This document shows positions 6,549-55,158 of a stretch of DNA of 62,643 bases, in pieces. Numbering within the stretch: the stretch's first letter is position 1; every line of letters starts with the position of its first letter. Location: positions 1 to 62,643 of the forward strand of contig JAYUUS010000020.1 in NCBI GenBank assembly GCA_043754435.1, written 5' to 3'. The translations under genes and the position numbers were made by a program. The notes under the pieces were generated by a model. That model made no database searches, was not told the origin of the DNA, and saw nothing but the letters and a program-made list of their open reading frames with translations. Source of the stretch: Rhodanobacteraceae bacterium (GTDB taxonomy: Bacteria; Pseudomonadota; Gammaproteobacteria; Xanthomonadales; SZUA-5).

Positions 6549-8048
6549 CTATTTTAGCTCTAAAACCAGATCCTGATCCGCCTGCATGAGTTTACGTACC
6601 GTTTCTATCCTGGGCTTACAGCTGTAGCAGCCATATTCAAGCTGGTATTGTTGGCCACGAAATGCAGCCACTTTTAACTGCCTAGTGCTGCTGCTACTGG
6701 TGCTTACCGAATATCCTATGCCAACACATCGTGGCGACACGTTTACCTCACCATCGTTTTTCTGCGCATGCGTGAACTCCAAGTTCACCCGCGACGATTC
6801 TGGAATTTCTGCCAGAACCACGGAGTGACCCACCGGAATGTCGTGCTCATTTGCGAGCGCACCCGCGCCGATACGCCAACGCACAGGAATTTTCTCAGTG
6901 CGCAGTAATTCGCATGTGATGTTATAGGGCCATATTGGGGGCGCATAGGATTTCACTACCCAATGCAGTTGATAGCGCCCAGGCACGATCTCGCTGCCAT
7001 AGCGCTCATCAAGTTTGTCTAATTCATCCGCATCTATATTGGAGTGCTGCGATGCAGCCTGATTCGGCTCGGCCAAATTGGACTCTGGCGCATCAATGCG
7101 CAGCCATTCTAGTTCGCCCAATAGGTTTATCGGTGTGCCAGCAGCGGTGATTGGCACCAAAGTAATTTTCGCCGTAGGCTGATAGCGCATATACACGCGT
7201 GCACTGGTGCCAGCGACCAAATCGAGCTCGCAGTTCCGCTTTTCATGCTCGGTGGAACAGGCGGGTTGATATCCTGGCAACTCTGGCCAAAGCAAGCGGT
7301 AATGTCCAGCGGGCAAATCGAGTGGAATGCCTGACGGTGTTACGCGAACGGTTCTAATGGGCTTTGCGATGGTAATCGCCTCAATCGTAAGCGAAACTTC
7401 TGCGGATGCTTTAGCGGTCGCGCCCGCTAGAGCGAACGAAAGTGTCAGACTTGCAGGTGCCAATTTGTCGTTGGCTAGCTGGCGCACAAACTGCACCAGA
7501 TAGGCGTTTTCGGGTGCTGCAAGCTGATAGATCGGATTAGTACAAGCGCCCTGCGCATACCAAATACGCTGCGTCCAGGTCGTAGGAATTTGATGAGTTG
7601 GCTGGACAGCTTCGGGATCAAGCGGAACCAAGCGCGCTTCCCAGGTCGCCTTTGGTTCGGCACGCGCAAAAAACAGAATCGAGTCGTTGACATGCAGAGC
7701 ATCGGGGATAGCGGTAATGTAATAGCGATCCTGAATTTGCTTGGTCGTTGGCGCACGTAGATAGCGCGTTACCGCGACTTCCACCAGTTGGGACGACGTC
7801 CAGTCCATCCGAGCTGTGTCACCTAAGCTGACTACTTTGGCCTCTGCGACGATCTCTGCTGCGCCAAATTCCTCTCGCGTCTGGGCATCGAATCGCTCTC
7901 GCATTTGGGCATCAATTTGCTGTCGCAGCTGGGGATCCATTTTCTGTATCACTTCAGGTGGCACGCTGACGGCACATTCGAGCGCCCATGCGCCGCTTGA
8001 CTGCAAAGTAAGTGCAATCAGACCAAAAACCGACGCAAATGATTTCAT
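6549..8048 (-). CDS. Hypothetical secreted protein (no family recognised)
   Basis: 499-aa uninterrupted ORF. It has an N-terminal signal peptide MKSFASVFGLIALTLQSSGAWA and no motif I can assign. Confidence 0.55.
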   Translation of the reverse strand: MKSFASVFGLIALTLQSSGAWALECAVSVPPEVIQKMDPQLRQQIDAQMRERFDAQTREEFGAAEIVAEAKVVSLGDTARMDWTSSQLVEVAVTRYLRAPTTKQIQDRYYITAIPDALHVNDSILFFARAEPKATWEARLVPLDPEAVQPTHQIPTTWTQRIWYAQGACTNPIYQLAAPENAYLVQFVRQLANDKLAPASLTLSFALAGATAKASAEVSLTIEAITIAKPIRTVRVTPSGIPLDLPAGHYRLLWPELPGYQPACSTEHEKRNCELDLVAGTSARVYMRYQPTAKITLVPITAAGTPINLLGELEWLRIDAPESNLAEPNQAASQHSNIDADELDKLDERYGSEIVPGRYQLHWVVKSYAPPIWPYNITCELLRTEKIPVRWRIGAGALANEHDIPVGHSVVLAEIPESSRVNLEFTHAQKNDGEVNVSPRCVGIGYSVSTSSSSTRQLKVAAFRGQQYQLEYGCYSCKPRIETVRKLMQADQDLVLELK

Positions 8049-9058: not shown

Positions 9059-9901
9059 CTACTGAGTCCAGCGGCCTTCGCGTTGGGTCAGATTTCCTTT
9101 GCTGGTCAGCTCCGTGCCAAACACGGTTGCTTTGATCTGCACTTCACCTGGCTTTGCCAAGTCGGTTACTTTCACCGAACCCAAAATCCCATCAAGGTCA
9201 AAATCATAGGCTTTTAAAACCTTTTTGAAGCCGCCCAGGCACACGCCCACTTTGTCCATAGCCTGCTCAAAGCTTAGCGCTTTCACGTCTTCTGGGGTTT
9301 TTAAGTTGATCGAGTTCGCCGCATCGACCAGTGCGGTTACCGCGTTGCGCGCACGTTTGGGGTCGGCGAAATCGGTTTTGCTGGCCCAAGTCTGGATCGC
9401 GGTGATGGCTTTGGTAGCAGACTCTTTTTCCTCGGCACTAACTGAGCTGTTGGCCACTTGCATCTGCAGCGCGCCTGCGCCCATCGCAATGTAGCCAGGT
9501 AGCTGGTTTTTGTATTCGGCTAACTTCGGCTCAATTTCTTTCATAATCGAATCAACCGCGCCCGCTGCGGTCAAGCGCCCAAAAGACTCGGTGAATTGGC
9601 GGCGATCATCGGCACTGACGGGCTGCTTTTTCATGTCAGCGAATTTAGTCTGCATTTCCGCGAAGTCGGTTTTGCTTGAAACCAACTCAATCAAATGCCG
9701 CACATCATTTTGCTTGAGCGCATCGGCATAAGCGTTCATCGCGCCAGCGGCGGTCAATTTGCCAGCATTTTGCTCAGCAATTGCTTTTTCGGCAAGCGTG
9801 GAATGACCAGCGCTGTCACTGCCACACGCGGTAAAAGCCAATAGGGAGAGGGCCGCAGTAGCACCCAATAGCGCGCTGCGTAAAGTGGACGAAATGATCA
9901 T
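9059..9901 (-). CDS. Hypothetical lipoprotein
   Basis: 280 aa with signal peptide and lipobox (LLAFTAC). The mature part is alanine/lysine-rich and helical-looking. Confidence 0.6.
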   Translation of the reverse strand: MIISSTLRSALLGATAALSLLAFTACGSDSAGHSTLAEKAIAEQNAGKLTAAGAMNAYADALKQNDVRHLIELVSSKTDFAEMQTKFADMKKQPVSADDRRQFTESFGRLTAAGAVDSIMKEIEPKLAEYKNQLPGYIAMGAGALQMQVANSSVSAEEKESATKAITAIQTWASKTDFADPKRARNAVTALVDAANSINLKTPEDVKALSFEQAMDKVGVCLGGFKKVLKAYDFDLDGILGSVKVTDLAKPGEVQIKATVFGTELTSKGNLTQREGRWTQ

Positions 9902-12305: not shown

Positions 12306-12575
12306 TACCGCAATGGTTCAGCGAGCAAACAGTGGCAACAAGAATTGGCGGATAAGTTTTTGCTGCACGCCGACATCGTGGACGGACAATCAACTCGCGG
12401 CAGTGACTGCGTATTCTCGCGTGAAAGCGTCGTTATCGTCAGCTATGAATTTGCCAGCAAACGCCATCAAGAAATCGCGCAAGTCGACTGGCATTTGGTC
12501 GTTTTCGATGAAGCGCATCGATTGCGCAATTTGCGCAAGCTTTCCAAAAGTGCGTTCGCCGTTAGCGGTAGATTT
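12306..12575 (+). pseudogene. Remnant of an SNF2/RapA-like helicase (internal fragment around the DEAH box)
   Basis: The frame reads ..KQWQQELADKFLLHADIVDG...VVIVSYEFASKRHQEIAQVDWHLVVFDEAHRLRN.. with a stop just upstream and no N- or C-terminal domains. It overlaps the 3' end of the PIN ORF in antisense. Confidence 0.6.
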
Positions 12576-12947
12576 TTGAGTTGCTGGCGCATGGCATGGA
12601 CGGCGGTCGGTCACGTTATAAGTCATGATCACACCCGCATGGCAGCGAATCACTGCGGCAAGTACATGTCGATCATCAGGGTCGGGCAACTCTAATTCTG
12701 GAATAAGCGATGCGTAGTTGCGCACTAGGCAATCAGGCACAGACGCGTTAATTAGCTCGCGCGTGCGCTGGATTCTGGCCGGATCAATGTCTGGCCGGTT
12801 CTTCTGCAAATTACGCGTCCATTCGTCGTGGATTTGCTCCGTCCAACGCGCTTTGAATAGATCAGTCAGTGCCACACGCATCAGCAAGTCACGCACCTGC
12901 GCTGGGTAAAACACGCAGGCATCATAGACTGCTATGAAATTCGCCAT
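12390..12947 (-). CDS. PIN-domain toxin; C-terminal third probably non-native
   Basis: 185 aa. The PIN-like core runs VYDACVFYP...DPDDRHVLAAVIRCHAGVIMTYNVTD. After about residue 115 the ORF runs antisense through the helicase remnant. Confidence 0.6.
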   Translation of the reverse strand: MANFIAVYDACVFYPAQVRDLLMRVALTDLFKARWTEQIHDEWTRNLQKNRPDIDPARIQRTRELINASVPDCLVRNYASLIPELELPDPDDRHVLAAVIRCHAGVIMTYNVTDRRPCHAPATQKSTANGERTFGKLAQIAQSMRFIENDQMPVDLRDFLMAFAGKFIADDNDAFTREYAVTAAS

Positions 12948-12950
12948 TGT

Positions 12951-13460
12951 TTAGTAACCCAAACCCAGCTCTTGCGCTTCTTGCGTCAACTGATCCAAAG
13001 CGGATTTTCGTGCAATGGTGGATTGCGCGCGATAGGTCAATAAATCTTTGTACTGCACGCGCCGGTGCGACCCAACTTTGCGATGCGCTAGCACACCGCT
13101 TTCCAGCAGTTGCACGACAAAAGGGCGCGAAACATTCAGGAAATCAGCGGCCTGTTGCGTGGTTAGCTCGGCATGGATAGGAACGATGCTGACCGCGTTG
13201 CCACGCCCGATTTGCGCCAGAATATCGACGAGCAAAGTCAGTGCCGAAGCGGGCACGTCAATCTTGTTCTCCCCGTGAATCACCTGTAGGCGTGCAGTTT
13301 CGCCATGGCCAATGCACGCCGCCAACAATCGACTGCTCTGGCTAGCCAAACGCACGTCTTGCTCGCTGGGCAAAGTTGCGGGAAGTCCTACCGGAAGATG
13401 GCGCGGAAAAACAGCTTGGATTTTGCGTGCGGGACTCATGGGTGCTCTCCGTTTTGACAA
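12951..13460 (-). CDS. Excisionase/MerR-type HTH DNA-binding antitoxin partner of the PIN protein
   Basis: 169 aa. LTTQQAADFLNVSRPFVVQLLESGVLAHRKVGSHRRV is an excisionase-family HTH. There is a 3-bp gap to the PIN gene. Confidence 0.65.
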   Translation of the reverse strand: MSKRRAPMSPARKIQAVFPRHLPVGLPATLPSEQDVRLASQSSRLLAACIGHGETARLQVIHGENKIDVPASALTLLVDILAQIGRGNAVSIVPIHAELTTQQAADFLNVSRPFVVQLLESGVLAHRKVGSHRRVQYKDLLTYRAQSTIARKSALDQLTQEAQELGLGY

Positions 13461-22551: not shown

Positions 22552-23769
22552 ATGCAAATGCACGCTATAATCTGCGACCCTGAGTATCTGATGGCGCCAC
22601 GAACCTACTCGCACGCACAATTACTGCTCTATGCCGGCCTGTTTACACACGGCTGCGTCGGGCTGTTGCTGTTTGTTCTAGGCGGCAGCGACGGCCCCAT
22701 GCAGATAGCGCTTGCCGCGCGCATCTTGCTTTGGCTTTGCTATTTTGCATTTGGCATCGCGTATTTTGTCTTGCTTTCGGAGCGTAGCGCCAATGCCAAG
22801 CTTACCAACATTATGTTGCTTTTGATTTGCAGCGCGATGTTGACGTTTGCTTACGTGATCGCGAATGGCTTGGCGGCGGTATTGCTGATGGTTTCGGCGG
22901 CCGCCATTGCTTACGCCTTGCCATTGCGCCCGGCGCTGGTTTGGATGATCGGGCAAAACCTAGCGTTTTTGCCTATTTTGGCAGCGCAGGGAAAATTGCC
23001 GCTCATTGAAGTAGTGCTCACGGTTGCGATGTATTTGGGCGTGTCCAGTTTCGTGTTTATGACCGCGTGGATCGGCAAGCGGCAAATGCAGGCACGCGAA
23101 CAGCTGCGTTTAGTCAATATGGAGCTGCGCGCCGCGCAAGCAATGCTCTCCGATACTGAACGCACCGCTGAGCGTTTGCGCATCTCGCGTGAGCTGCACG
23201 ATTTGGTGGGTCATCACTTAACGGCGCTCGCACTCAACTTAGAGGTCGCCACGCATTTGACCGAAGGCAAAGCGCTGACACACGTACAGCAAGCGCAGAG
23301 TATCTCCAAACTCTTGTTGAGCGATGTGCGCGAAGTGGTGAGCACGCTGCGTGAAGGCGACCCGATGCAGCTTGACCGCACGCTTAAAGCGATGATCGCT
23401 GACGTGCCTATGCCAAAAGTGCACTTGAATTTACCGCACCCGTTTATCTTAAGCGATGCACCGCGCGCGCACGCGCTGCTGCGCTTAGCGCAAGAAGTGC
23501 TGACCAATGCGATAAAACATTCGGGCGCACGCAACTTGTGGCTCACTTTTGCGCTGCGTGACGCAGGCGTCGAGGTTAGCGCGCATGATGACGGGCATGG
23601 CACGGATCAATTAAAAGATGGCAATGGCCTTGCTGGCATGCGCGAGCGTTTGGCGGCATTTGGCGGCACAATTGTGTGTGAAAGCGCGGTTGGAAGAGGC
23701 TTTAATGTTGCGGCATTTCTACCGCTGCGAACGCATGTGGCGCTCATAAATGGAACTGGAGAACGATAA
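22552..23769 (+). CDS. Sensor histidine kinase, HisKA_3 (DesK/LiaS/NarX-like) with polytopic N-terminal membrane domain
   Basis: Several N-terminal TM helices, H-box RISRELHDLVGHHLTAL, and an ATPase domain with NAIKHSGA and GNGLAGMRERL. Confidence 0.85.
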   Translation: MQMHAIICDPEYLMAPRTYSHAQLLLYAGLFTHGCVGLLLFVLGGSDGPMQIALAARILLWLCYFAFGIAYFVLLSERSANAKLTNIMLLLICSAMLTFAYVIANGLAAVLLMVSAAAIAYALPLRPALVWMIGQNLAFLPILAAQGKLPLIEVVLTVAMYLGVSSFVFMTAWIGKRQMQAREQLRLVNMELRAAQAMLSDTERTAERLRISRELHDLVGHHLTALALNLEVATHLTEGKALTHVQQAQSISKLLLSDVREVVSTLREGDPMQLDRTLKAMIADVPMPKVHLNLPHPFILSDAPRAHALLRLAQEVLTNAIKHSGARNLWLTFALRDAGVEVSAHDDGHGTDQLKDGNGLAGMRERLAAFGGTIVCESAVGRGFNVAAFLPLRTHVALINGTGER

Positions 23770-24461
23770 TGACAACGCAATTTAAGCCAACGCTCGCACA
23801 CGGCGCGGATGGTGCAGCGCGCATTCGCGTGTGTTTAGTGGATGACCAAATGCTCGTGCGTGCAGGAATTCGCAGCTTGCTAGAGCTTTCAGATTCGGTA
23901 GAAGTCGTCGCGGAAGCGGTCGATGCCGACAGTGCCATCGCCATTATTCCCCAAATTAAACCCGATGTTGTTTTGCTGGACATGCAAATGCCGGGCAAGC
24001 TTGGGCTGGAAGTATTGCGCGAACTGGGGCCCAAAGGACTCTTGCCGCCAACCGTAATTTTAACGACGTTCGACGACGATCAGTATGTTTTGGCCGGCCT
24101 TCAGGCGGGCGCGCGCGGCTATTTACTGAAAGATGTATCGTTAGATCAGCTGGTCGATGCGATTAAAGCCGTTGCGGCAGGCGGCACGTTAGTCAAGCCC
24201 GCAATTACCCAACGATTGCTTTCAGGTTTGAGCCATTTGGAAAACAAATTTGCGGCACTCGATGTGCCGGATCACTTGACCGAGCGTGAAACCGAGATTT
24301 TGCGACTCATGAGCGCAGGTTACAGTAACAAAGAAATTGCGCGTGCTTTGGATGTGGCGGAAGGCACCGTCAAAAATCATGTGTCTAACATTCTTTCTAA
24401 GCTTGGCGTGCGTGATCGCACACGCGCGGTGTTAAAGGCGTTTGAGTTGAAATTAGTGTAG
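23769..24461 (+). CDS. NarL/LuxR-family response regulator
   Basis: Receiver domain (VCLVDDQ...VVLLDMQMPG) plus LuxR HTH (LTERETEILRLMSAGYSNKEIARAL..TVKNHVSNILSKLGV). The start overlaps the kinase stop. Confidence 0.9.
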   Translation: MTTQFKPTLAHGADGAARIRVCLVDDQMLVRAGIRSLLELSDSVEVVAEAVDADSAIAIIPQIKPDVVLLDMQMPGKLGLEVLRELGPKGLLPPTVILTTFDDDQYVLAGLQAGARGYLLKDVSLDQLVDAIKAVAAGGTLVKPAITQRLLSGLSHLENKFAALDVPDHLTERETEILRLMSAGYSNKEIARALDVAEGTVKNHVSNILSKLGVRDRTRAVLKAFELKLV

Positions 24462-24475
24462 TGCGTTAATATCGC

Positions 24476-24504
24476 TTGAGCTTCCGGCAATTGAATTCTA
24501 TAAT
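24476..24504 (+). promoter_or_regulatory. Candidate sigma70 promoter for the lasso-like operon
   Basis: TTGAGC (24476-24481), a 17-nt spacer, then TATAAT (24499-24504). This lies 34 nt upstream of the precursor ATG, and AAGG sits 9 nt before that ATG. Confidence 0.4.
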
Positions 24505-24537: not shown

Positions 24538-24699
24538 ATGAGCAAAATACAACCGAACACAACTGTTGAATCACAGGTTGTCGTGCGCGAGGTCTATCAA
24601 GTGCCCGCATTAACTCTTTTGGGCGACGTGCGGGATTTGACGCTCGGTGGTTCGCCCGGCTCGGGTGACTCGGGCAACCCAGCTGCTGAGCGCTTCTAA
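24538..24699 (+). CDS. Lasso-peptide-type RiPP precursor (53 aa, absent from the ORF track)
   Basis: My translation is MSKIQPNTTVESQVVVREVYQVPALTLLGDVRDLTL-GGSPGSGDSGNPAAERF. With cleavage after TL the leader has Tyr-17, Pro-14, Leu-12 and Thr-2. The core starts with Gly1 and has Asp8. The ORF sits directly upstream of B2 and B1 homologues. Confidence 0.75.
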   Translation: MSKIQPNTTVESQVVVREVYQVPALTLLGDVRDLTLGGSPGSGDSGNPAAERF

Positions 24700-24706
24700 A
24701 CGCTGA

Positions 24707-25633
24707 ATGGTCGATTTGCGACTCACTGTCGCCGGACATACCGAATGCTATAGCGGAACCCTTGCAGGCCAGCGAACCCTAAGTTCACTGGCCTGCTCGC
24801 ATTTGGAGACGAATGAAAATGCCGAGCTGATGCTGCATGATCCTGGCGATCAGCGGCACGGTAGCGATGAGTTCGAGAATTTTTCAGAACACGATGCCAG
24901 CAAGAGCGTGGAAATCCACGCTGAACTTGAAGCGAACCCGGTCACACTACGTGCAATCCATACTTTGCAGCGCAGTTATTTTACCGGCCCAGATGCTTCG
25001 TTTTGGGTAGACACTAACGGCAGCTGTGCGGCCTTAACACATTGTGCGCACAATCCAGTGCCTTGGCTATTTGGCCCGGTACTGATTTTAGCTTTGGCGC
25101 GTTTAGGCGTGTACTGTTTGCATGCCAGTGCTGCCTTGACAGCCAAGGGTGACGCAGCCACTGTTTTTGTAGGACATAGTGGCGCCGGTAAATCGAGTTT
25201 GGCGCGCGCGATATCTAAGCGGGTCGGCGCGCAGCGCTTGTGTGATGACATCACGCCAATTGCACTGCGCGCGGGCAAGCTGTACGTGCTGCCCCGCTTT
25301 CCACAATTAAAACTGAGCGCGGTGGATCAAAATTTGCCGGAGCAGGTGCCATTAAAACGCTTAGTCTTGTTAAATGCAGCGCAGACATGGCTTGCAAGCG
25401 AGCATCAAGCTTTAACGCAGCGCGAGTTGTTTGAAGCGTTGACACGTCACACGGTGGCTACCCGGCTTTACTCAGCTACAGATACGCGTATTTGGTGGCA
25501 AGTATTGCCGCAGATCATGGCGGCACTGAGCGATTCTTGCTCAATTCGGCCGGGTTTCGATGCACAAGCGCCCGAACGCGCTATGCTTGCCGCGCTTGAC
25601 GCTTTGGATGCCTTGGATAGTTTATGTGGTTGA
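24707..25633 (+). CDS. HPr-kinase-related (HprK-like) P-loop kinase
   Basis: 308 aa. LHASAALTAKGDAATVFVGHSGAGKSSLA resembles the HprK C-terminal domain P-loop. It starts 7 bp after the precursor stop and overlaps B2 by 10 bp. Confidence 0.65.
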   Translation: MVDLRLTVAGHTECYSGTLAGQRTLSSLACSHLETNENAELMLHDPGDQRHGSDEFENFSEHDASKSVEIHAELEANPVTLRAIHTLQRSYFTGPDASFWVDTNGSCAALTHCAHNPVPWLFGPVLILALARLGVYCLHASAALTAKGDAATVFVGHSGAGKSSLARAISKRVGAQRLCDDITPIALRAGKLYVLPRFPQLKLSAVDQNLPEQVPLKRLVLLNAAQTWLASEHQALTQRELFEALTRHTVATRLYSATDTRIWWQVLPQIMAALSDSCSIRPGFDAQAPERAMLAALDALDALDSLCG

Positions 25634-26067
25634 ATTTACCTTCACTGCTTTTGCTTGACCTGCGGGTACGCGGGCAACTGCGCCGGTTTGGATTCGCAGC
25701 TGCATTGACTGCGTTTTCCCAACCTAAGGCGAAGCCCAGCCAGAAGTTTGCGCCTGGGCCTGCGGAGCTTGCGTTCGCACAGTCCGCAGCGCTATGGCTG
25801 CGCCGTTTCGCAAATTTACCTAAACGGCTGCCGCGCTTTGGACGCTGGGTGAATCAAGTGCTCGGGCCAAGCGCCTGCTTGGATCAAGCGATCGCGTTGC
25901 GGGCGTTTTTGCATGCTAGAGGTCTGCCCGCTGAGCTAAAAATTGGGACACGGCGCGTAGCCGATCAAGGTTTTGCAGCGCATGCTTGGGTCGAGTTGGC
26001 GGGCATTGCGCTGGGTGAGTCGCTTGATATGAAGGCGCAACACATACAGTTTGAAGGCAAGCTGTGA
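25624..26067 (+). CDS. Lasso peptide biosynthesis B2 protein (transglutaminase-like Cys protease)
   Basis: 147 aa. SACLDQAIALRAFLHARGLPAELKIGTRR....FAAHAWVELAG matches the B2 Cys...His signature. Confidence 0.8.
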   Translation: MWLNLPSLLLLDLRVRGQLRRFGFAAALTAFSQPKAKPSQKFAPGPAELAFAQSAALWLRRFANLPKRLPRFGRWVNQVLGPSACLDQAIALRAFLHARGLPAELKIGTRRVADQGFAAHAWVELAGIALGESLDMKAQHIQFEGKL

Positions 26068-26324
26068 GCTACTGTTTAGCCGAGGGTGTGCTGACCCAAA
26101 AACTTGGGTCCCAAGTGGTGTTGATGCATGTCCTAAAAGGTCAATACTTTGAACTCAACGATACCGGTGCGATGGTGCTGGAGGCGATTTTGGCGGGTGC
26201 CGACGAAATTGCAACGACGGCCCAACTCAGTCAACGGTTCGATGTGGATCAGATCAGCACGCAAGCGGATGTCTTGGCGTTGATAAAAAATTTAATAGAC
26301 AGAGAGCTGCTGTCGTTGAAGTGA
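26064..26324 (+). CDS. PqqD-family RRE chaperone (lasso B1)
   Basis: 86 aa. ..VVLMHVLKGQYFELNDTGAMVLEAI..LSQRFDVD...DVLALIKNLIDRELL is PqqD-like. It overlaps B2 by 4 bp. Confidence 0.8.
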   Translation: MSYCLAEGVLTQKLGSQVVLMHVLKGQYFELNDTGAMVLEAILAGADEIATTAQLSQRFDVDQISTQADVLALIKNLIDRELLSLK

Positions 26325-26374
26325 AAGTGCCTGTCAAGTCGGATGAAAAATCCAGTGAAGTAACGGCGCGGCCA

Positions 26375-27040
26375 ATGAACGCGGCGTCACGAAAATTACT
26401 TTTTGAACGCTTTCAGGCAGCAAACCCTACGCCAAAAACGGAGCTTGAATATCAAAACCCGTTTGAACTTTTGATTGCCGTGATGTTGTCTGCGCAGGCC
26501 ACTGACGTTAGCGTCAATAAAGCCACACGCAAGCTTTATGCAGTGGCAAATACGCCCGAAGCTATTGTGGCGCTTGGCCTAGATCGACTGCGGGAGTACA
26601 TCAAAACGATTGGCCTGTATCAGAATAAAGCCAAAAATGTAGCCGCTACCTGCGCGCTACTGATTGCGAACCATCAAAGTCAGGTGCCACAGGATCGCGC
26701 GGCACTTGAAGCTTTGCCGGGCGTCGGTCGAAAAACTGCTAACGTCGTGCTCAATACCGCGTTTGACCAGCCAACAATGGCGGTGGACACGCATATTTTC
26801 AGGCTCGCCAACCGCATGGGTCTAGCGCCGGGGAGTAATGTGCTAAATGTGGAAAATGCGCTATTAAAACGTATTCCAAAAGCTTATCTGCAAGATGCGC
26901 ATCATTGGCTGATCTTGCACGGACGCTATATCTGTAAGGCGCGCGCGCCAGATTGCTCAGCTTGCTTCGTCAGAGATTTATGCGGTTGGCGCGGCAAAAA
27001 TGCGATGATCAAAATTTCTGCTACGAACGCAATCACTTGA
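26375..27040 (+). CDS. nth: Endonuclease III
   Basis: ELEYQNPFELLIAVMLSAQATD, HhH-GPD LPGVGRKTANVVL and a C-terminal 4Fe-4S cluster loop C..C..C. The start is set at the internal ATG at 26375. Confidence 0.92.
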   Translation: MNAASRKLLFERFQAANPTPKTELEYQNPFELLIAVMLSAQATDVSVNKATRKLYAVANTPEAIVALGLDRLREYIKTIGLYQNKAKNVAATCALLIANHQSQVPQDRAALEALPGVGRKTANVVLNTAFDQPTMAVDTHIFRLANRMGLAPGSNVLNVENALLKRIPKAYLQDAHHWLILHGRYICKARAPDCSACFVRDLCGWRGKNAMIKISATNAIT

Positions 27041-27421: not shown

Positions 27422-29377
27422 TTATTCTTCGGATTTGGAACCGGAATGAGCACTAACTTTTTTCACATCGCCTATGCGAAAAAATTCCTCAACCTGCGCA
27501 ATTTGATCGGTGCGCTGCATCGCTGGCAGGCTTTGTAGAAACGTCTTACCGTAGGATTTGGTGTAAAGGCGCGGATCACACAGCATCAGCAGACCACGAT
27601 CCGTGACCGTGCGAATTAAGCGCCCAACGCCTTGCTTGAGTGCCAAAACGGCCTGCGGCAATTGATAATGGGCAAACGGGTTGCCGCCGCGCGCGCGAAT
27701 ATCTTCGAGTTTCGCTTCCAACACCGGATCACCAATTTGGCGAAAGGGCAGTTTGTCGATAATCACCACGCTCAACGCCTCGCCCGGCACATCCACGCCT
27801 TCCCAGAAACTTGCCGCACCCAACAAGATGCCGTTGCCGGATTTTTGAAACCCCGCAAGCAGCTGCCCGCGCGGTGCGCTACCCTGCACGAACAGCGGAA
27901 AGTGAAGGCGTGAGCTCAAGTATTCCGCTGCTTCTTTGAGCGCGCGGTGGCTGGTAAACAGCATAAATGCGCGCCCCCCGCTGGCTTGCAGCACCGGAAT
28001 CGCCGCCGTCAAAACCGCTTGCGTATAGCCTTCTTGGGTAGGATCAATGCCTAATTTGGGTATAAACAAAAGCGCTTGCTTAGCGTAGTCAAACGGGCTG
28101 TCTAACCGCAGCGTTTGGGCCTCAAAAGCGCCGGTTTCATGTTGAAAATGCTGGAAATCAGCGCCCACCGCCAAGGTTGCAGAGGTATAAATCCAGGCCG
28201 CCCCCGTCTTGGCGCGAAATTCACCGAGCGGGCCAGCGACGTCCAGCGGCGTCGCATTGAGGGCAAAGCCGGTGGCGAATAGCTCGTACCAACGCACTTC
28301 ATCTGGGGCATCAACAATAATGGTTTGCAGCCGCTGCAAGAGTTCCTCCGCGCGCGCTGAGCAGCTTTTCAAGCCATCGCTGCGTTCACTTTGTGTCGCT
28401 AGCACCGCTGCCAAGTCGCTTAACGCCTCAGTCATGCTCGTAAGCGCTGCCGCCACCGCAGGTTCCGCCAATACCGGCATCAGCGGCGCTTTCGCGGCAT
28501 ACGGATTTAGGCTCAAGCGAAAGTCTTTGAGCGTGCGCTCCAGCAACAGCGCCGGGTCGCGCACGCTCGCCATCGCGCCGGTGGCGACGGCGGCTTCGGT
28601 CGTGGCATCGCGGCTGAGCTCTAAAATCTGCCGATAACCAACCGTGGTCGAGAAAAAGCTGGTCGCCGCGTCCGCAATCTGGTGCGCTTCATCCAAGACA
28701 TACACTTGCGCACCGGGCAGAACTTCGCCAAAACCTTCGCGCCGCACCGCCATGTCGGAAAACAGCAAATGATGATTCACCACCACCAAATCCGCCGCCT
28801 GCGCGCGTCGGCGCGCTTTGACGACATAACAATCTTCCCAAAACGCGCATTCCACGCCTAAGCAATTTTCTGCGTTCGAGGTCACTAGCGGCCAAATCGC
28901 GGCGTCCTCAGCCAAGCCCGGAATTTCCGCACGATCACCGGATTTTGACTTCGGCGTCCATTCGCGCACCCGTTTGAGTTCGTTCAACAGTTCGCGCTGG
29001 GTAACGCCTTCTTTGATCGTGCGCTCCAGCCGATGCAGGCACACGTAATTCGCGCGGCCTTTCAAAAGCGCTAACTTGGCGTCATTCAAACCCAGCGTGC
29101 GCCGCACCTGCGGTAAATCCCGGTGAAATAGCTGATCCTGCAGCGCTTTAGTGCCGGTGGAAATAATGGTTTTTTTGCCCGACACTAGTGCTGGCACCAG
29201 ATACGCATAGGTTTTACCCGTGCCAGTGCCGGCCTCGGCAATCAGCTGCCCGCGCGTTTCGATGCAGTGCTCAATCGCCTGCGCCAACTCTTGCTGCGCC
29301 ACGCGCGGTCTAAAGCCATCAATACTTTGCGCGAACGGGCCGGTGGCACCCAGTAAGGCGAATGCGCGCGCGGTCAT
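27422..29377 (-). CDS. ATP-dependent DNA helicase, DinG/YoaA (XPD/Rad3) family
   Basis: AGTGTGKTYAYLVPAL (Walker A), VLDEAHQI (DEAH) and C-terminal helicase motifs. The start is set at ATG 29377 (MTARAF...). Confidence 0.85.
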   Translation of the reverse strand: MTARAFALLGATGPFAQSIDGFRPRVAQQELAQAIEHCIETRGQLIAEAGTGTGKTYAYLVPALVSGKKTIISTGTKALQDQLFHRDLPQVRRTLGLNDAKLALLKGRANYVCLHRLERTIKEGVTQRELLNELKRVREWTPKSKSGDRAEIPGLAEDAAIWPLVTSNAENCLGVECAFWEDCYVVKARRRAQAADLVVVNHHLLFSDMAVRREGFGEVLPGAQVYVLDEAHQIADAATSFFSTTVGYRQILELSRDATTEAAVATGAMASVRDPALLLERTLKDFRLSLNPYAAKAPLMPVLAEPAVAAALTSMTEALSDLAAVLATQSERSDGLKSCSARAEELLQRLQTIIVDAPDEVRWYELFATGFALNATPLDVAGPLGEFRAKTGAAWIYTSATLAVGADFQHFQHETGAFEAQTLRLDSPFDYAKQALLFIPKLGIDPTQEGYTQAVLTAAIPVLQASGGRAFMLFTSHRALKEAAEYLSSRLHFPLFVQGSAPRGQLLAGFQKSGNGILLGAASFWEGVDVPGEALSVVIIDKLPFRQIGDPVLEAKLEDIRARGGNPFAHYQLPQAVLALKQGVGRLIRTVTDRGLLMLCDPRLYTKSYGKTFLQSLPAMQRTDQIAQVEEFFRIGDVKKVSAHSGSKSEE

Positions 29378-29724
29378 GGTGGGGTATCGCTCGGTGTGAC
29401 AGCGTCCGCATTGCCGCTCTGGCGTTCTTCCAGCTGATGCCAAATGCGTAGAATCACGACAGCATCGGCGTGCATCGAATAGCGCACGACATAACTGCCA
29501 AAAGCCATATCGCGTAGCGAAAATTTGTTAGCAATGCCCAAACTTATGGAGCTTGATATTTTGGGCATCACCACGCCCATCTCAGGAAAGATCCGCAATT
29601 TCTCGATACGATCAACTAATTCCAAGCCAATACGCTTGGCTGCCACCGGATTTTTTTGGGAAATGAAGTGCCGTAATCGAATTAAATCGTCGCGCGCCTT
29701 TTCTGAATAGTTGAGCCGCTTCAT
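29374..29724 (-). CDS. RelE/ParE-family toxin
   Basis: 116 aa. ..ARDDLIRLRHFI...YVVRYSMHADAVVILRIWH is ParE-like. Its TGA overlaps the helicase ATG (ATGA). Confidence 0.7.
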   Translation of the reverse strand: MKRLNYSEKARDDLIRLRHFISQKNPVAAKRIGLELVDRIEKLRIFPEMGVVMPKISSSISLGIANKFSLRDMAFGSYVVRYSMHADAVVILRIWHQLEERQSGNADAVTPSDTPP

Positions 29725-29993
29725 TGCCCTACTTTTGGCGGCATAAGTTCATCGCTGCTGCCCCAAGATTGCAGCCATTGGTGCATTGCATCGCCTGAAA
29801 TAATGCGACCGGCTGCAACTGATTCCATCGCTTCTGTAGTATCGTCCCAGCGGCTTTGTAGCAATTTTTCGCGCTCAAGAAATTCCTTCAGTGCTTGATT
29901 GATTAACCAACTTTTGCTGCGCTGAAGTTTTTGCGCGGCATCAGACAGGGCATGATCAATTTCCGACGGTAATCGCACACTGGTGATGCTCAT
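29721..29993 (-). CDS. Ribbon-helix-helix (CopG/ParD-like) antitoxin
   Basis: 90 aa. MSITSVRLPSEIDHALSDAAQKLQRSKSWLINQALKEFLE is an RHH fold signature. It overlaps the toxin by 4 bp. Confidence 0.7.
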   Translation of the reverse strand: MSITSVRLPSEIDHALSDAAQKLQRSKSWLINQALKEFLEREKLLQSRWDDTTEAMESVAAGRIISGDAMHQWLQSWGSSDELMPPKVGQ

Positions 29994-30090
29994 GGAATTT
30001 ACTCCTCTACTAATGACTACAGTGTATTACTTTGCAGTCGTCTTTTGCGCATAACCTATGTTTGCAAGAGCTAGGTTTGCAAGAGATTAC

Positions 30091-43233: not shown

Positions 43234-45789
<2,556 letters not shown>

Positions 45790-46998: not shown

Positions 46999-47730
46999 TC
47001 AGTTGCGCGAATTCTGTGAAATTGCGCCACTGACGGTGCTCAATTCACTGCGGCTGAGGAACGGCAGTTGCGAAATAATCTGTTCCAGTATCGATCCGGT
47101 TTTCAAACCCAACTCTGACGATTGAATCAGCACTGTGCCTTGACCGGTAAAATCAATCTGCTTTTCCTCACCTGAAAGCGTGATGCCGGTTACCGCGCCC
47201 ACCATGGACATCACACCCGCAACGTGCTCGTAATCATAACGATAGGATGGGCTTGGGCAATCCGCCCAGCCAAGCACCGCTTGCTCGTCGACTCGGCAAG
47301 GTAATTCCAAAAAATGTACCGGGCCATTACTGGAGACAATGATTTTGCCGTTGCCAAGCATCGTTAAATAGCCGGGCAAGGTCGATTCTTGGCAGATAAC
47401 ATCCTTGGTAAAGCCAAGCAGATTGCCAGCTTTTACCGTCATATTGGCGTTGTCCAGATCGTAACACCCGATGTCATTGCCGTTATCCCCCAAAATCAGC
47501 TGACCGTGGCCTTTAGCTACAACAAAATGGTGGATATAAGCGGGCGCGTTAAAGGTGTTTTTGATGAGGATATCCAACAGGCTGGAGCCCATCGACTCAA
47601 ACTCCAATTCGCCGTAGAAGGCAATCATTTTGCCTTTTCGAATAAAGATTTCTTCATGCACATCGACAACAAAAGCAAACCGGTTCAAGTTATCGTTTTT
47701 TGGCAGGTTGATAGGGTTATAGATAATCAT
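46999..47730 (-). CDS. AIM24/DUF124-family protein, divergent third paralogue
   Basis: 243 aa. GKMIAFYGELEFE... and ..IDFTGQGTVLIQSSE align with the two upstream paralogues. It has an extra C-terminal tail. Confidence 0.6.
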   Translation of the reverse strand: MIIYNPINLPKNDNLNRFAFVVDVHEEIFIRKGKMIAFYGELEFESMGSSLLDILIKNTFNAPAYIHHFVVAKGHGQLILGDNGNDIGCYDLDNANMTVKAGNLLGFTKDVICQESTLPGYLTMLGNGKIIVSSNGPVHFLELPCRVDEQAVLGWADCPSPSYRYDYEHVAGVMSMVGAVTGITLSGEEKQIDFTGQGTVLIQSSELGLKTGSILEQIISQLPFLSRSELSTVSGAISQNSRN

Positions 47731-47732
47731 GA

Positions 47733-48374
47733 TTAGCGCTCGCTCGCTTGGATATACACCGTGCCCTGGCCCATGAATTTGACTTGGTAGGACTCCCCTG
47801 AGGCCTGGCCCACGAACGTTTTCCAGTTGAGGTCGGTTACGATTGTAGAGGTCAAATTGCCTTTATGGCCAAGGTAGGCATTCGGGTCAACAAACACCGG
47901 CTGTTCGGCGCTAACCTCTAGCCCAATGGCATTGCCATCGGAAAGCATTGCCAGTTCGCCGCTGCCCTGCAAAGTCGTGGTGAATAGCCCCTGGCCACTC
48001 ACGGCACCCCGCACCATGCTTTGCACGCCACCCTGATTGCCTAAAAACATCGTGCCAGTGCGTAGACGGCCATCGTAAGCCAGCAGGTTTTCGCTTTCGA
48101 CATACATGGTTTCATTGGCTAGACTGATTAGCTTGACGAATAGCCCGTTATAGCCGTAGAAAATCTTGCCCGTGCCGCGCGCTGACATGAGCGCGTTGCC
48201 TTCATTCGTCGCGGTGCGCATCGCAAAGTCGTTCACGTTACCACCGCCTAGAAAGGAGCGAGCAAAATTGACGTTACCCTGATAGGCAATCATCGAGCCT
48301 CTTTTGGCAAAAAGCTCCTCATTGTTTAGCGTCACTTCGATGAGCTTTTCATTGAGTTGATTATAGGAAGGCAT
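47733..48374 (-). CDS. AIM24/DUF124-family protein, second paralogue
   Basis: 213 aa from the ATG at 48374 (GGAG upstream). GSMIAYQGNVNF..., SGQGLFTTTLQGSGELAML and GQASGESYQVKFMGQGTVYIQASER. Confidence 0.7.
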   Translation of the reverse strand: MPSYNQLNEKLIEVTLNNEELFAKRGSMIAYQGNVNFARSFLGGGNVNDFAMRTATNEGNALMSARGTGKIFYGYNGLFVKLISLANETMYVESENLLAYDGRLRTGTMFLGNQGGVQSMVRGAVSGQGLFTTTLQGSGELAMLSDGNAIGLEVSAEQPVFVDPNAYLGHKGNLTSTIVTDLNWKTFVGQASGESYQVKFMGQGTVYIQASER

Positions 48375-48384
48375 CGCTTGCTCC

Positions 48385-49035
48385 TTAGCGTTCGGCGGGC
48401 TGGATATAAACCAGCCCTTGGCCGGTAAATTTAAGTTGATAGGACTCGCCGGATGCTTGCCCAACCATGGTGCGCCAATTCACATCAAAGATGAATTCCT
48501 GCTGGATATTGCCTTTGTAGCCAATGAAAGCATCGGGATCAACAAATAACGGGTATTTAGGACTGACTTCCAGCGTGATCAAATTGCCGCGCGAGATCAC
48601 CGCGATATTGCCCGTTCCTTCTACCGTTGAGGTAAACAAACCCTGCCCAGATGTAGCACCCCGCAAACCAGCAAAGATGGTTTTAGTTTTGAGCGCGACG
48701 TCATATGCCAATAGGCTGCTGCTTTCAATGAATAATTTTTCTGCTGCCAGCGGAATCACCGCTATTTCAGCCGCGTTCTGCGCGAAATAGACCGTGCCGG
48801 TGCCGGTGGTCTGCATCAAAGACATGCCTTCATTCGTCACTTTGCGTTTTAAGGCCCCGAAAAATCCTTCACCGCCCAATATAGACTTCTCAAATTTCAT
48901 GCTGCCGGTATAGGCGACCATGGAGCCTGCGATCGCCATCACCTTTTCGTTTTGCAGGCCAACCTCCAGCAAACGATCTGTATTGATCTTAAAACTGCTC
49001 ACGACTTTGCTCCGTAGTGTGTGGATCTTTGCCAA
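48385..49035 (-). CDS. AIM24/DUF124-family protein, first paralogue
   Basis: 216 aa. GSMVAYTGSMKFEKS.., SGQGLFTSTVEGTGNIAVIS and GQASGESYQLKFTGQGLVYIQPAER. Confidence 0.7.
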   Translation of the reverse strand: MAKIHTLRSKVVSSFKINTDRLLEVGLQNEKVMAIAGSMVAYTGSMKFEKSILGGEGFFGALKRKVTNEGMSLMQTTGTGTVYFAQNAAEIAVIPLAAEKLFIESSSLLAYDVALKTKTIFAGLRGATSGQGLFTSTVEGTGNIAVISRGNLITLEVSPKYPLFVDPDAFIGYKGNIQQEFIFDVNWRTMVGQASGESYQLKFTGQGLVYIQPAER

Positions 49036-54870: not shown

Positions 54871-54904
54871 CGAACTTTTGCAGCTCGTGTGGTAATCTTG
54901 TCAG

Positions 54905-55099
54905 GCAAGCGGGAGAGACTGTCAAGGTCAAGCCCAGGCAGCGCCGAAGGAGCAACCGCCCCGGAAACTCTCAGGCAAAAGGACCGCTTGCAGCCCAAAT
55001 ACACGTTTTTTAGCGTGTGCTTGGAAAAAACTCTGGAAAATTGCGCGTTTAAGCACGCGCGTGCCGACGGGATAACGCTCTCAGGCAACACAGACAGAG
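54905..55099 (+). promoter_or_regulatory. Tandem glycine riboswitch (two aptamers) in the gcvP leader
   Basis: Aptamer 1 (54905-54991): gcaagcGGGAGAG...CGCCGAAGGAGCAA...CCGGAAACTCTCAGGCAAAAGGACcgcttgc. Aptamer 2 (55031-55099): CTCTGGAAAA...GCCGACGGGATAA..CTCTCAGGCAACACAGACAGAG. Confidence 0.85.
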
Positions 55100-55158
55100 G
55101 GGGCATGAAATATCGGCTTGTTCAAAGCTGGCCACCTCATGCCCAACTCAGGATTTTT

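Follow-up and report, generated by a model that had tools for sequence, protein, structure and literature searches.

A conserved lasso-like gene cassette with a kinase and without a cyclase next to nth in a Gram-negative lineage

In this work, we analyse a 62,643-nt stretch of DNA from a Rhodanobacteraceae bacterium (the window), which is the entire contig of a metagenome-assembled genome (MAG), and describe in it a compact set of genes for a lasso-type peptide, that is, for a peptide made on ribosomes and then modified after translation (RiPP). The genes encode a precursor (A), an HprK-like kinase (K), a B2 leader peptidase and a discrete B1 RiPP recognition element (RRE), in the order A-K-B2-B1, with neither a macrolactam cyclase (C) nor an exporter on the contig, to which all such negatives for the window apply. 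We see an about even chance that the cassette derives from a lasso cluster and functions with no macrolactam cyclase, as a RiPP pathway of its own. What favours such an autonomous pathway is that A, K and B1 are kept in every related locus that lacks a cyclase, while B2 was lost twice.

All four genes lie on the + strand. The 53-residue precursor (24538–24699) matches the family lasso_leader_L3 (NF033521, E 8e-6, above the curated cut-off) and is followed by the 308-residue kinase (24707–25633), with the P-loop GHSGAGKS and a weak match to HprK_rel_A. B2 (25624–26067, 147 residues) is a transglutaminase-like cysteine protease (NF033537, E 3e-15, above cut-off; PF13471, E 8e-15), and B1 (26064–26324, 86 residues, GTG start) has the PqqD fold of discrete RREs (PF05402, E 2e-12; NF033530 lasso_PqqD, below cut-off). 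Seven nucleotides separate the stop of A (24699) from the start of K (24707); the overlaps that follow measure 10 nt between K and B2 (25624–25633) and 4 nt between B2 and B1 (26064–26067). The four open reading frames (ORFs) of the original prediction are confirmed in coordinates and spacing, and their family assignments are far beyond chance.

The precursor has the marks of a lasso substrate. Its leader, residues 1–36 (24538–24645), carries the RRE-binding motif Y20-x-x-P23-x-L25 and a threonine at position −2 (Thr35), and its predicted core, residues 37–53 (24646–24696), is the 17-residue GGSPGSGDSGNPAAERF, with glycine at core position 1 (Gly37) and aspartate at core position 8 (Asp44). 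We place the boundary after Leu36 because B2 peptidases follow a Thr(−2) rule (PMC10368454); a boundary after Thr35, with a core beginning with leucine, was dropped on the same ground. The precursor ends in phenylalanine and so does not have the C-terminal serine that is the phosphosite of paeninodin-type precursors.

At E ≤ 1e-3, the precursor belongs to a family of 592 proteins, some of which, from Xanthomonadales MAGs, are labelled by NCBI as lasso leader peptides. The family consensus is a leader ...YxxPxLxxLGDVRDLT-L and a core GGSPG[ST]GDSG....F, and the stretch G-G-[ST]-x-G-x-G-D-S-G is near-invariant across the family. Among 117 parsed precursors there is no variation at Thr(−2), Gly1, Gly5, Gly7, Asp8 and Ser9, and position 3 is serine or threonine in all 117, although some of this invariance was built in by the parsing pattern, to which 117 of 120 sequences conformed. 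In 90 of these precursors the core has 17 residues, and in 91 it ends in phenylalanine. Its stretch GDSGNPG (window 24646–24696; P0084–P0203) resembles the GDSGGP motif in which trypsin-like proteases carry their catalytic serine.

Fold comparison places the kinase. An AlphaFold model of K built with 21 homologues reaches a predicted local distance difference test (pLDDT) score of 90.5, and its best Foldseek matches are PEPCK and HprK/P (1kkl); we relied on the fold search because a sequence search of the PDB with the kinase profile returned generic P-loop matches only. His139, Lys162, Asp180 and Asp181 are invariant in the 21 homologues and correspond to the His-Lys-Asp-Asp motif of paeninodin-type lasso kinases, which is essential by mutagenesis (PMC9266682). 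Both K and B1 stay below the curated cut-offs of the HPr-rel-A equivalog models, with K scoring 24 bits against a cut-off of 200 (TIGR04352 HprK_rel_A) and B1 16.8 bits against 35 (TIGR04353 PqqD_rel_X). Homologues of K carry a precomputed assignment to PF27840 'ScmC', which we take to denote the SynChlorMet cassette protein; a literature search on 'ScmC' gave nothing relevant. At E ≤ 1e-30, the kinase family comprises 726 clusters at 50% identity, and the kinases of cyclase-less loci are a handful of its top matches. A search of plasmids with K found only a canonical A-B1-B2-C-K-D cluster of Paracoccus sp. MC1862 (L042). B2, in turn, aligns at Cys85 and His120 (plus Glu132) with the B2 proteins of cyclase-linked clusters, so that the cassette has both a B1 RRE and a B2 with the catalytic Cys/His of lasso clusters.

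The cyclase is what the cassette does not have. Pfam scans of the large ORFs in the window and the gene tables of overlapping contigs contain none, a search, with filters off, of all ORFs of 35 residues or more in the six frames of the window with a profile built from 11 lasso cyclases gave a best E value of 0.22, and tblastn for a cyclase remnant in the window gave a best E value of 0.03, which is noise. The same profile and tblastn found nothing in roughly 130 kb from nine related cyclase-less loci (roughly 190 kb with the window), and in none of these ten does the cluster include a PF00733/NF033535 cyclase. The claim that 62 kb of sequence are free of a cyclase is therefore upheld for the contig. 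Decay in place was considered and rejected: only 76 nt lie between the stop of the preceding response regulator gene and A, and tblastn finds no remnant. A profile search seeded with four related cyclases, which depends on shared words and is too insensitive to weigh against a cyclase in trans, returned only one of the queries itself and distant asparagine-synthase-like proteins at most 27% identical.

An exporter or isopeptidase was likewise predicted to be missing, and we find neither an ABC exporter nor an isopeptidase in the window, where the sole ABC system (~32.1–33.9 kb) is an importer-type pair of ABC_tran and BPD_transp_1. This absence is not distinctive because the closest cyclase-bearing cluster, L024, also has no exporter.

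Relatives were gathered by looking up identical and homologous proteins for K and A and by a metagenome scan with the precursor alignment, and their gene flanks were read from contig records to ±10 kb. A scan of GTDB genomes with the kinase alignment, dominated by the P-loop pattern, had seven distant relatives among the matches listed. The survey of relatives that had been called for finds the block A-K-(B2)-B1-nth in about ten independent assemblies with differing outer flanks, none with a cyclase. The full order of histidine kinase, response regulator, A, K, B2, B1 and nth is found in the window, L001/L002, L010, L011, L017/L018, L020 and L038, and in part in L035; L013/L014 have A-K-B2-B1-nth without the two-component system; L012 has A-K-B1-nth with no trace of B2; and L040 has the two-component genes, A, K, a B2 remnant, B1 and nth. 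Across these loci, which have a guanine–cytosine (GC) content of 0.51–0.56, identity to the window is 34–98% for K and 63–86% for Nth. The B1–nth junction recurs in many independent assemblies, which excludes the misassembly at about 26.33 kb that would have undone the prediction.

The cassette is under purifying selection. Ratios of non-synonymous to synonymous substitution rates (dN/dS; Nei–Gojobori, window against L020, L010 and L011) are 0.07–0.17 for A, 0.16–0.21 for K, 0.09–0.16 for B2 and 0.10–0.18 for B1, and A, K and B1 are free of frameshifts and stops in about ten lineages. B1 is present in every cyclase-less locus, and B2 was lost independently twice, as a whole in L012 and by internal deletion in L040, with A, K and B1 intact in both. 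In L040, a clean deletion leaves a stub (9802–9864) of the first 20 codons (MCLNLTSLFLHDLRVRTGQL, then a stop), spares the CTGTGAGC stop/start junction with B1 and leaves A, K, B1 and nth intact. These two losses point to A, K and B1 as the selected unit and, judged from gene content, the canonical route to a lasso cannot operate in the L012 and L040 lineages. Separately, the B1/PqqD protein of L012 (11007–11411) has 134 residues, with KSRRSGDTAD repeated three times in tandem at its end.

A promoter in front of A appears to serve A-K-B2-B1 and probably nth. A sigma-70-like element, TTGAGC-17-TATAAT (24476–24504, + strand), agrees with the consensus at 10 of 12 positions and ends 34 nt before the ATG of A. 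When five loci are aligned, its −35 and −10 hexamers do not change while the bases around them do, a pattern search finds the element 5' of A in nine of the ten cyclase-less loci, and the tenth, L012, has the variant TTGAGT-17-TATACT, read by eye. Downstream, endonuclease III (nth, 26321–27040, + strand; TIGR01083, 270 bits, above cut-off) has two possible starts, a GTG at 26321 that overlaps the B1 stop by 4 nt and an ATG at 26375; the NCBI annotation of the contig uses the former (239 residues), and relatives conserve the latter. The operon had been thought to end after B1, with nth starting about 50 bp later, but this is not supported: the stretch from A to nth in the window contains no terminator on the + strand, and in all related loci B1 has nth as its next neighbour, overlapping it or 0–95 nt away. 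No promoter of its own is evident for nth in the window, and the gene is probably co-transcribed with A-K-B2-B1.

The same precursor family also occurs in clusters with a cyclase, which place the cassette in an evolutionary context. In L024, L025, L023, L027 and L030, A lies directly 3' of a PF00733 cyclase in the order C-A-K-B2-B1; in L024, the series runs TonB-dependent receptor, C, A, K, B2, B1 and DUF1631. These sister clusters have the same precursor family and core as the window, arrange K, B2 and B1 in the same order and likewise carry a promoter-like element before A; they differ in having the cyclase directly 5' of A, no link to nth or a two-component system, and genomes of higher GC content. 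B2 before B1, which had seemed atypical for a proteobacterium, is the normal order in the family, including its cyclase-bearing Gram-negative members. In a neighbour-joining tree of K, the cyclase-less, nth-linked kinases form one clade, sister to those of the cyclase-linked L024 and L025; by this tree the clade is of single origin, which suggests that C was lost or moved once and that the remaining genes have been retained for a long time since. In these cyclase-linked relatives, the same core is, by its residues, a textbook Gly1–Asp8 lasso substrate. A promoter-like CTTGC..N17..TAnAcT also stands 5' of A, downstream of C, in the cyclase-linked L024, L025, L019 and L039, so that A seems to be expressed highly and separately throughout the family.

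In a third architecture, from other organisms, C and A adjoin giant Peptidase_C25 genes, and the 10 kb around them contain neither K nor B1 nor B2 (L039, L019); L021 has the order PqqD, NTP_transf_5, C and A. One or two of these large, gingipain-like genes adjoin the cyclase and precursor at three unrelated loci (L039, 8155–20168; L019, 57–4339; L015, 6699–10004). Together with the likeness of GDSGNPG to a protease motif, these recurrent neighbours hint that the family may relate to proteases.

From these observations we propose a pathway that needs no cyclase. The conserved sigma-70-type promoter would drive A-K-B2-B1 and probably nth too, and the B1 RRE would bind the YxxPxL motif in the 36-residue leader. 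With ATP, K would then phosphorylate a conserved hydroxyl of the core, for which Ser3 (always Ser/Thr) and Ser9 are the candidates. Where B2 is present, it would be given the substrate by B1 and would cut after Leu(−1), guided by Thr(−2), to release a 17-residue linear (poly)phosphopeptide. We infer phosphorylation and its site, the cleavage site, the linearity of the product and co-transcription with nth.

There is a precedent for such a pathway. The linear, polyphosphorylated peptides (LPPs) of Bacillota (lppAKBSDN; Popov et al. 2026) are phosphorylated on core Ser3 and made without a cyclase by a machinery in which a discrete RRE and a leader peptidase accompany an HprK-like kinase, and their authors describe them as restricted to Bacillota (PMC13381572). 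The cassette of the window has the combination that marks LPPs, namely a precursor together with an HprK-like kinase and a discrete RRE but no cyclase (the last for the contig), and shares with them descent from the lasso type, a YxxP leader motif and a PqqD-type RRE. The phosphosite of LPPs, core Ser3, has its counterpart in core position 3 of the window family, which is always Ser/Thr. The two differ in most other respects. The peptidase of the window is a canonical lasso B2, whereas LPPs use the SpI/SipW-like signal peptidase LppS; the cassette is without the NTP-transferase LppN and the MsbA-like exporter LppD, and neither these nor an LppS-type peptidase appear in the operon or the gene tables of the window. 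The leader consensus is ...LGDVRDLT-L, compared with YxxPxVLxHQxIxFETxxS in LPPs, and the core has 17 near-invariant residues, whereas LPPs have long, variable C-termini. Finally, the host is Gram-negative and the context a core-genome operon with nth, compared with Bacillota and capsule loci. The kinase tree indicates that the cyclase-free cassette arose independently of the LPPs of Bacillota. Of the three explanations first offered for the missing cyclase, a linear, possibly phosphorylated RiPP is the best supported, given the LPP precedent (PMC13381572) and the two losses of B2, and we put its chances at around one in two.

Several points weigh against a linear phosphopeptide. The cassette shares with paeninodin (C-A-K-B1-B2-D) and the proteobacterial A-B1-B2-C-K-D clusters the His-Lys-Asp-Asp kinase, the split B1/B2, YxxPxL, Thr(−2) and Gly1, but a cyclase and an ABC exporter are present in those clusters and absent from the window, and their precursors end in a serine that the kinase phosphorylates (...QLTFS in Paracoccus). 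Characterized lasso kinases need this C-terminal serine, and the precursor of the window ends in phenylalanine. Thr(−2), Gly1, Asp8 and the bulky C-terminal phenylalanine are as strictly kept as in the cyclase-linked relatives, whereas some relaxation of lasso-defining residues would be expected had ring formation been abandoned. Loci with C and A and without K, B1 and B2 show that this RiPP family tolerates dispersed or partial gene sets, and the B2 deletion of L040 is seen in a single MAG contig.

Some of these facts speak for a split lasso cluster, in which a cyclase encoded at another site of the genome, perhaps beside a further copy of the precursor, closes the Gly1–Asp8 ring once B1/B2 have processed the peptide and K has phosphorylated it, to give a phosphorylated lasso. 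The invariance of the lasso residues extends to the 17-residue length, the precursor family does include loci with C and A that lack K/B genes (L039, L019; L021), and the window makes only 62.6 kb of the genome visible. However, the flanks of about ten cyclase-less loci, roughly 190 kb in total, hold no cyclase; the loci with C and A only are mostly of higher GC content (0.55–0.66 compared with 0.51–0.56 in the cyclase-less clade) and have different neighbours; and two lineages that retained A, K and B1 lost B2, on which the cyclase would depend for a free N-terminus. We regard a split cluster as less likely than the linear product but plausible and a serious rival to it.

A further explanation, which we consider unlikely, concerns function and is compatible with a linear product: the product of A, K and B1 would be a regulatory or 'domesticated' peptide that serves the adjacent two-component system as signal or cofactor, or acts within the cell, and is not a secreted natural product. 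Directly 5' of the cassette lie, on the + strand, a sensor histidine kinase (22552–23769; HisKA_3/HATPase_c, with weak NCBIfam matches of the UhpB/MadS/LiaS type) and a NarL/LuxR-type response regulator (23769–24461; Response_reg and GerE, with NarL/MadR-like NCBIfam matches below cut-offs), whose start overlaps the histidine kinase stop. By a hydropathy scan, the N-terminal 175 residues of the histidine kinase have about five to six hydrophobic segments with short loops, the intramembrane-sensing type, which, like the lack of an exporter, would suit such a role. The histidine kinase is found directly 5' of the cassette in the window, L010, L011, L017, L020, L035, L038 and L040, and the response regulator is 81–96% identical across loci whose K shares only 34–77%. 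The whole seven-gene series from histidine kinase to nth is syntenic over deep divergence while the outer flanks change. The near-invariant core over 592 members is also unlike typical antibiotic RiPPs. Yet L012 and L013 have no adjacent two-component system, no conserved site for a regulator is apparent beyond the promoter hexamers in the five-locus alignment, and the synteny could reflect vertical inheritance alone. Whatever the product's structure, the context of the two-component system, the likely co-transcription with nth as a housekeeping DNA glycosylase gene, the absence of an exporter, the promoter and the near-invariant core point, if speculatively, to a peptide with a role in physiology or signalling and away from a variable, secreted antibiotic.

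The ring might still be formed without a cyclase of the asparagine-synthetase type if K, with its HprK/PEPCK fold, had taken over the activation of the carboxylate of Asp8 by turning it into an acyl-phosphate. The continued invariance of Gly1, Asp8 and the C-terminal plug after loss of the cyclase would then be explained and, if true, kinase-driven ring closure would give lassos or macrolactams a second enzymatic origin unrelated to the first, but we hold it to be very improbable. Least credible of all is a non-functional lasso remnant that survives because its promoter drives nth, as the missing cyclase, the degraded (L040) or absent (L012) B2 and an nth without an evident promoter of its own might suggest; this and the related proposal of a decayed cluster fail on dN/dS values of 0.07–0.21, an A, K and B1 free of disruption, and invariant catalytic motifs and an intact promoter in about ten assemblies whose K is 34–98% identical.

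The contig itself has the character of a core chromosome, with minCD, the atp operon, gyrB, dnaN and recF, a uniform GC content of about 0.53 and, in a Pfam scan, a GyrB with the insert domain typical of Gram-negative bacteria, in keeping with a proteobacterium-like lineage. The usual order dnaA-dnaN-recF-gyrB is broken in it: dnaN and recF lie at the contig end (59667–62498, + strand), with gyrB on the opposite strand at a distance of 14 kb (43234–45780, − strand). A tandem glycine riboswitch with two aptamers (69 and 40 bits) lies at 54900–55107, just 5' of gcvP, which means that the mechanically called 1,059-residue ORF from the GTG at 54889 begins too early and that its true start comes after about 55107. 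Three consecutive AIM24-family (PF01987) paralogues are arranged in tandem at 46999–49035 (− strand). A 499-residue ORF (6549–8048, − strand) has a signal-peptide-like N-terminus and no Pfam match, and at its position the closely related contig L036 has a 223-residue gene that also has no Pfam match. There are two toxin–antitoxin-like pairs on the − strand, a PIN domain protein with an HTH_17 protein (12390–13460) and, adjoining a DinG-like helicase, a ParE with a RelB/RHH protein (~29374–30000), in whose place the related contig L010 has two ParE/RHH pairs.

The lasso cyclase is taken as class-defining and is what genome-mining tools use, so that cassettes such as A-K-B2-B1 are invisible to them. 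What we describe is a kinase-bearing derivative without a cyclase in a Gram-negative lineage, which still has the canonical B1/B2 pair and has long been kept under purifying selection in a core-genome operon; we read it, with about even odds for the pathway proposed here, as a second, independently derived cyclase-free offshoot of the lasso machinery. The system is small, with four genes in 1.8 kb. Its family of 592 precursors pairs with at least three enzyme sets (C-A-K-B2-B1, C-A with C25 peptidases, and A-K-B2-B1-nth), which is unusual for RiPPs, and the near-invariance of a 17-residue core across distant bacteria suggests a conserved molecular target or physiological role.

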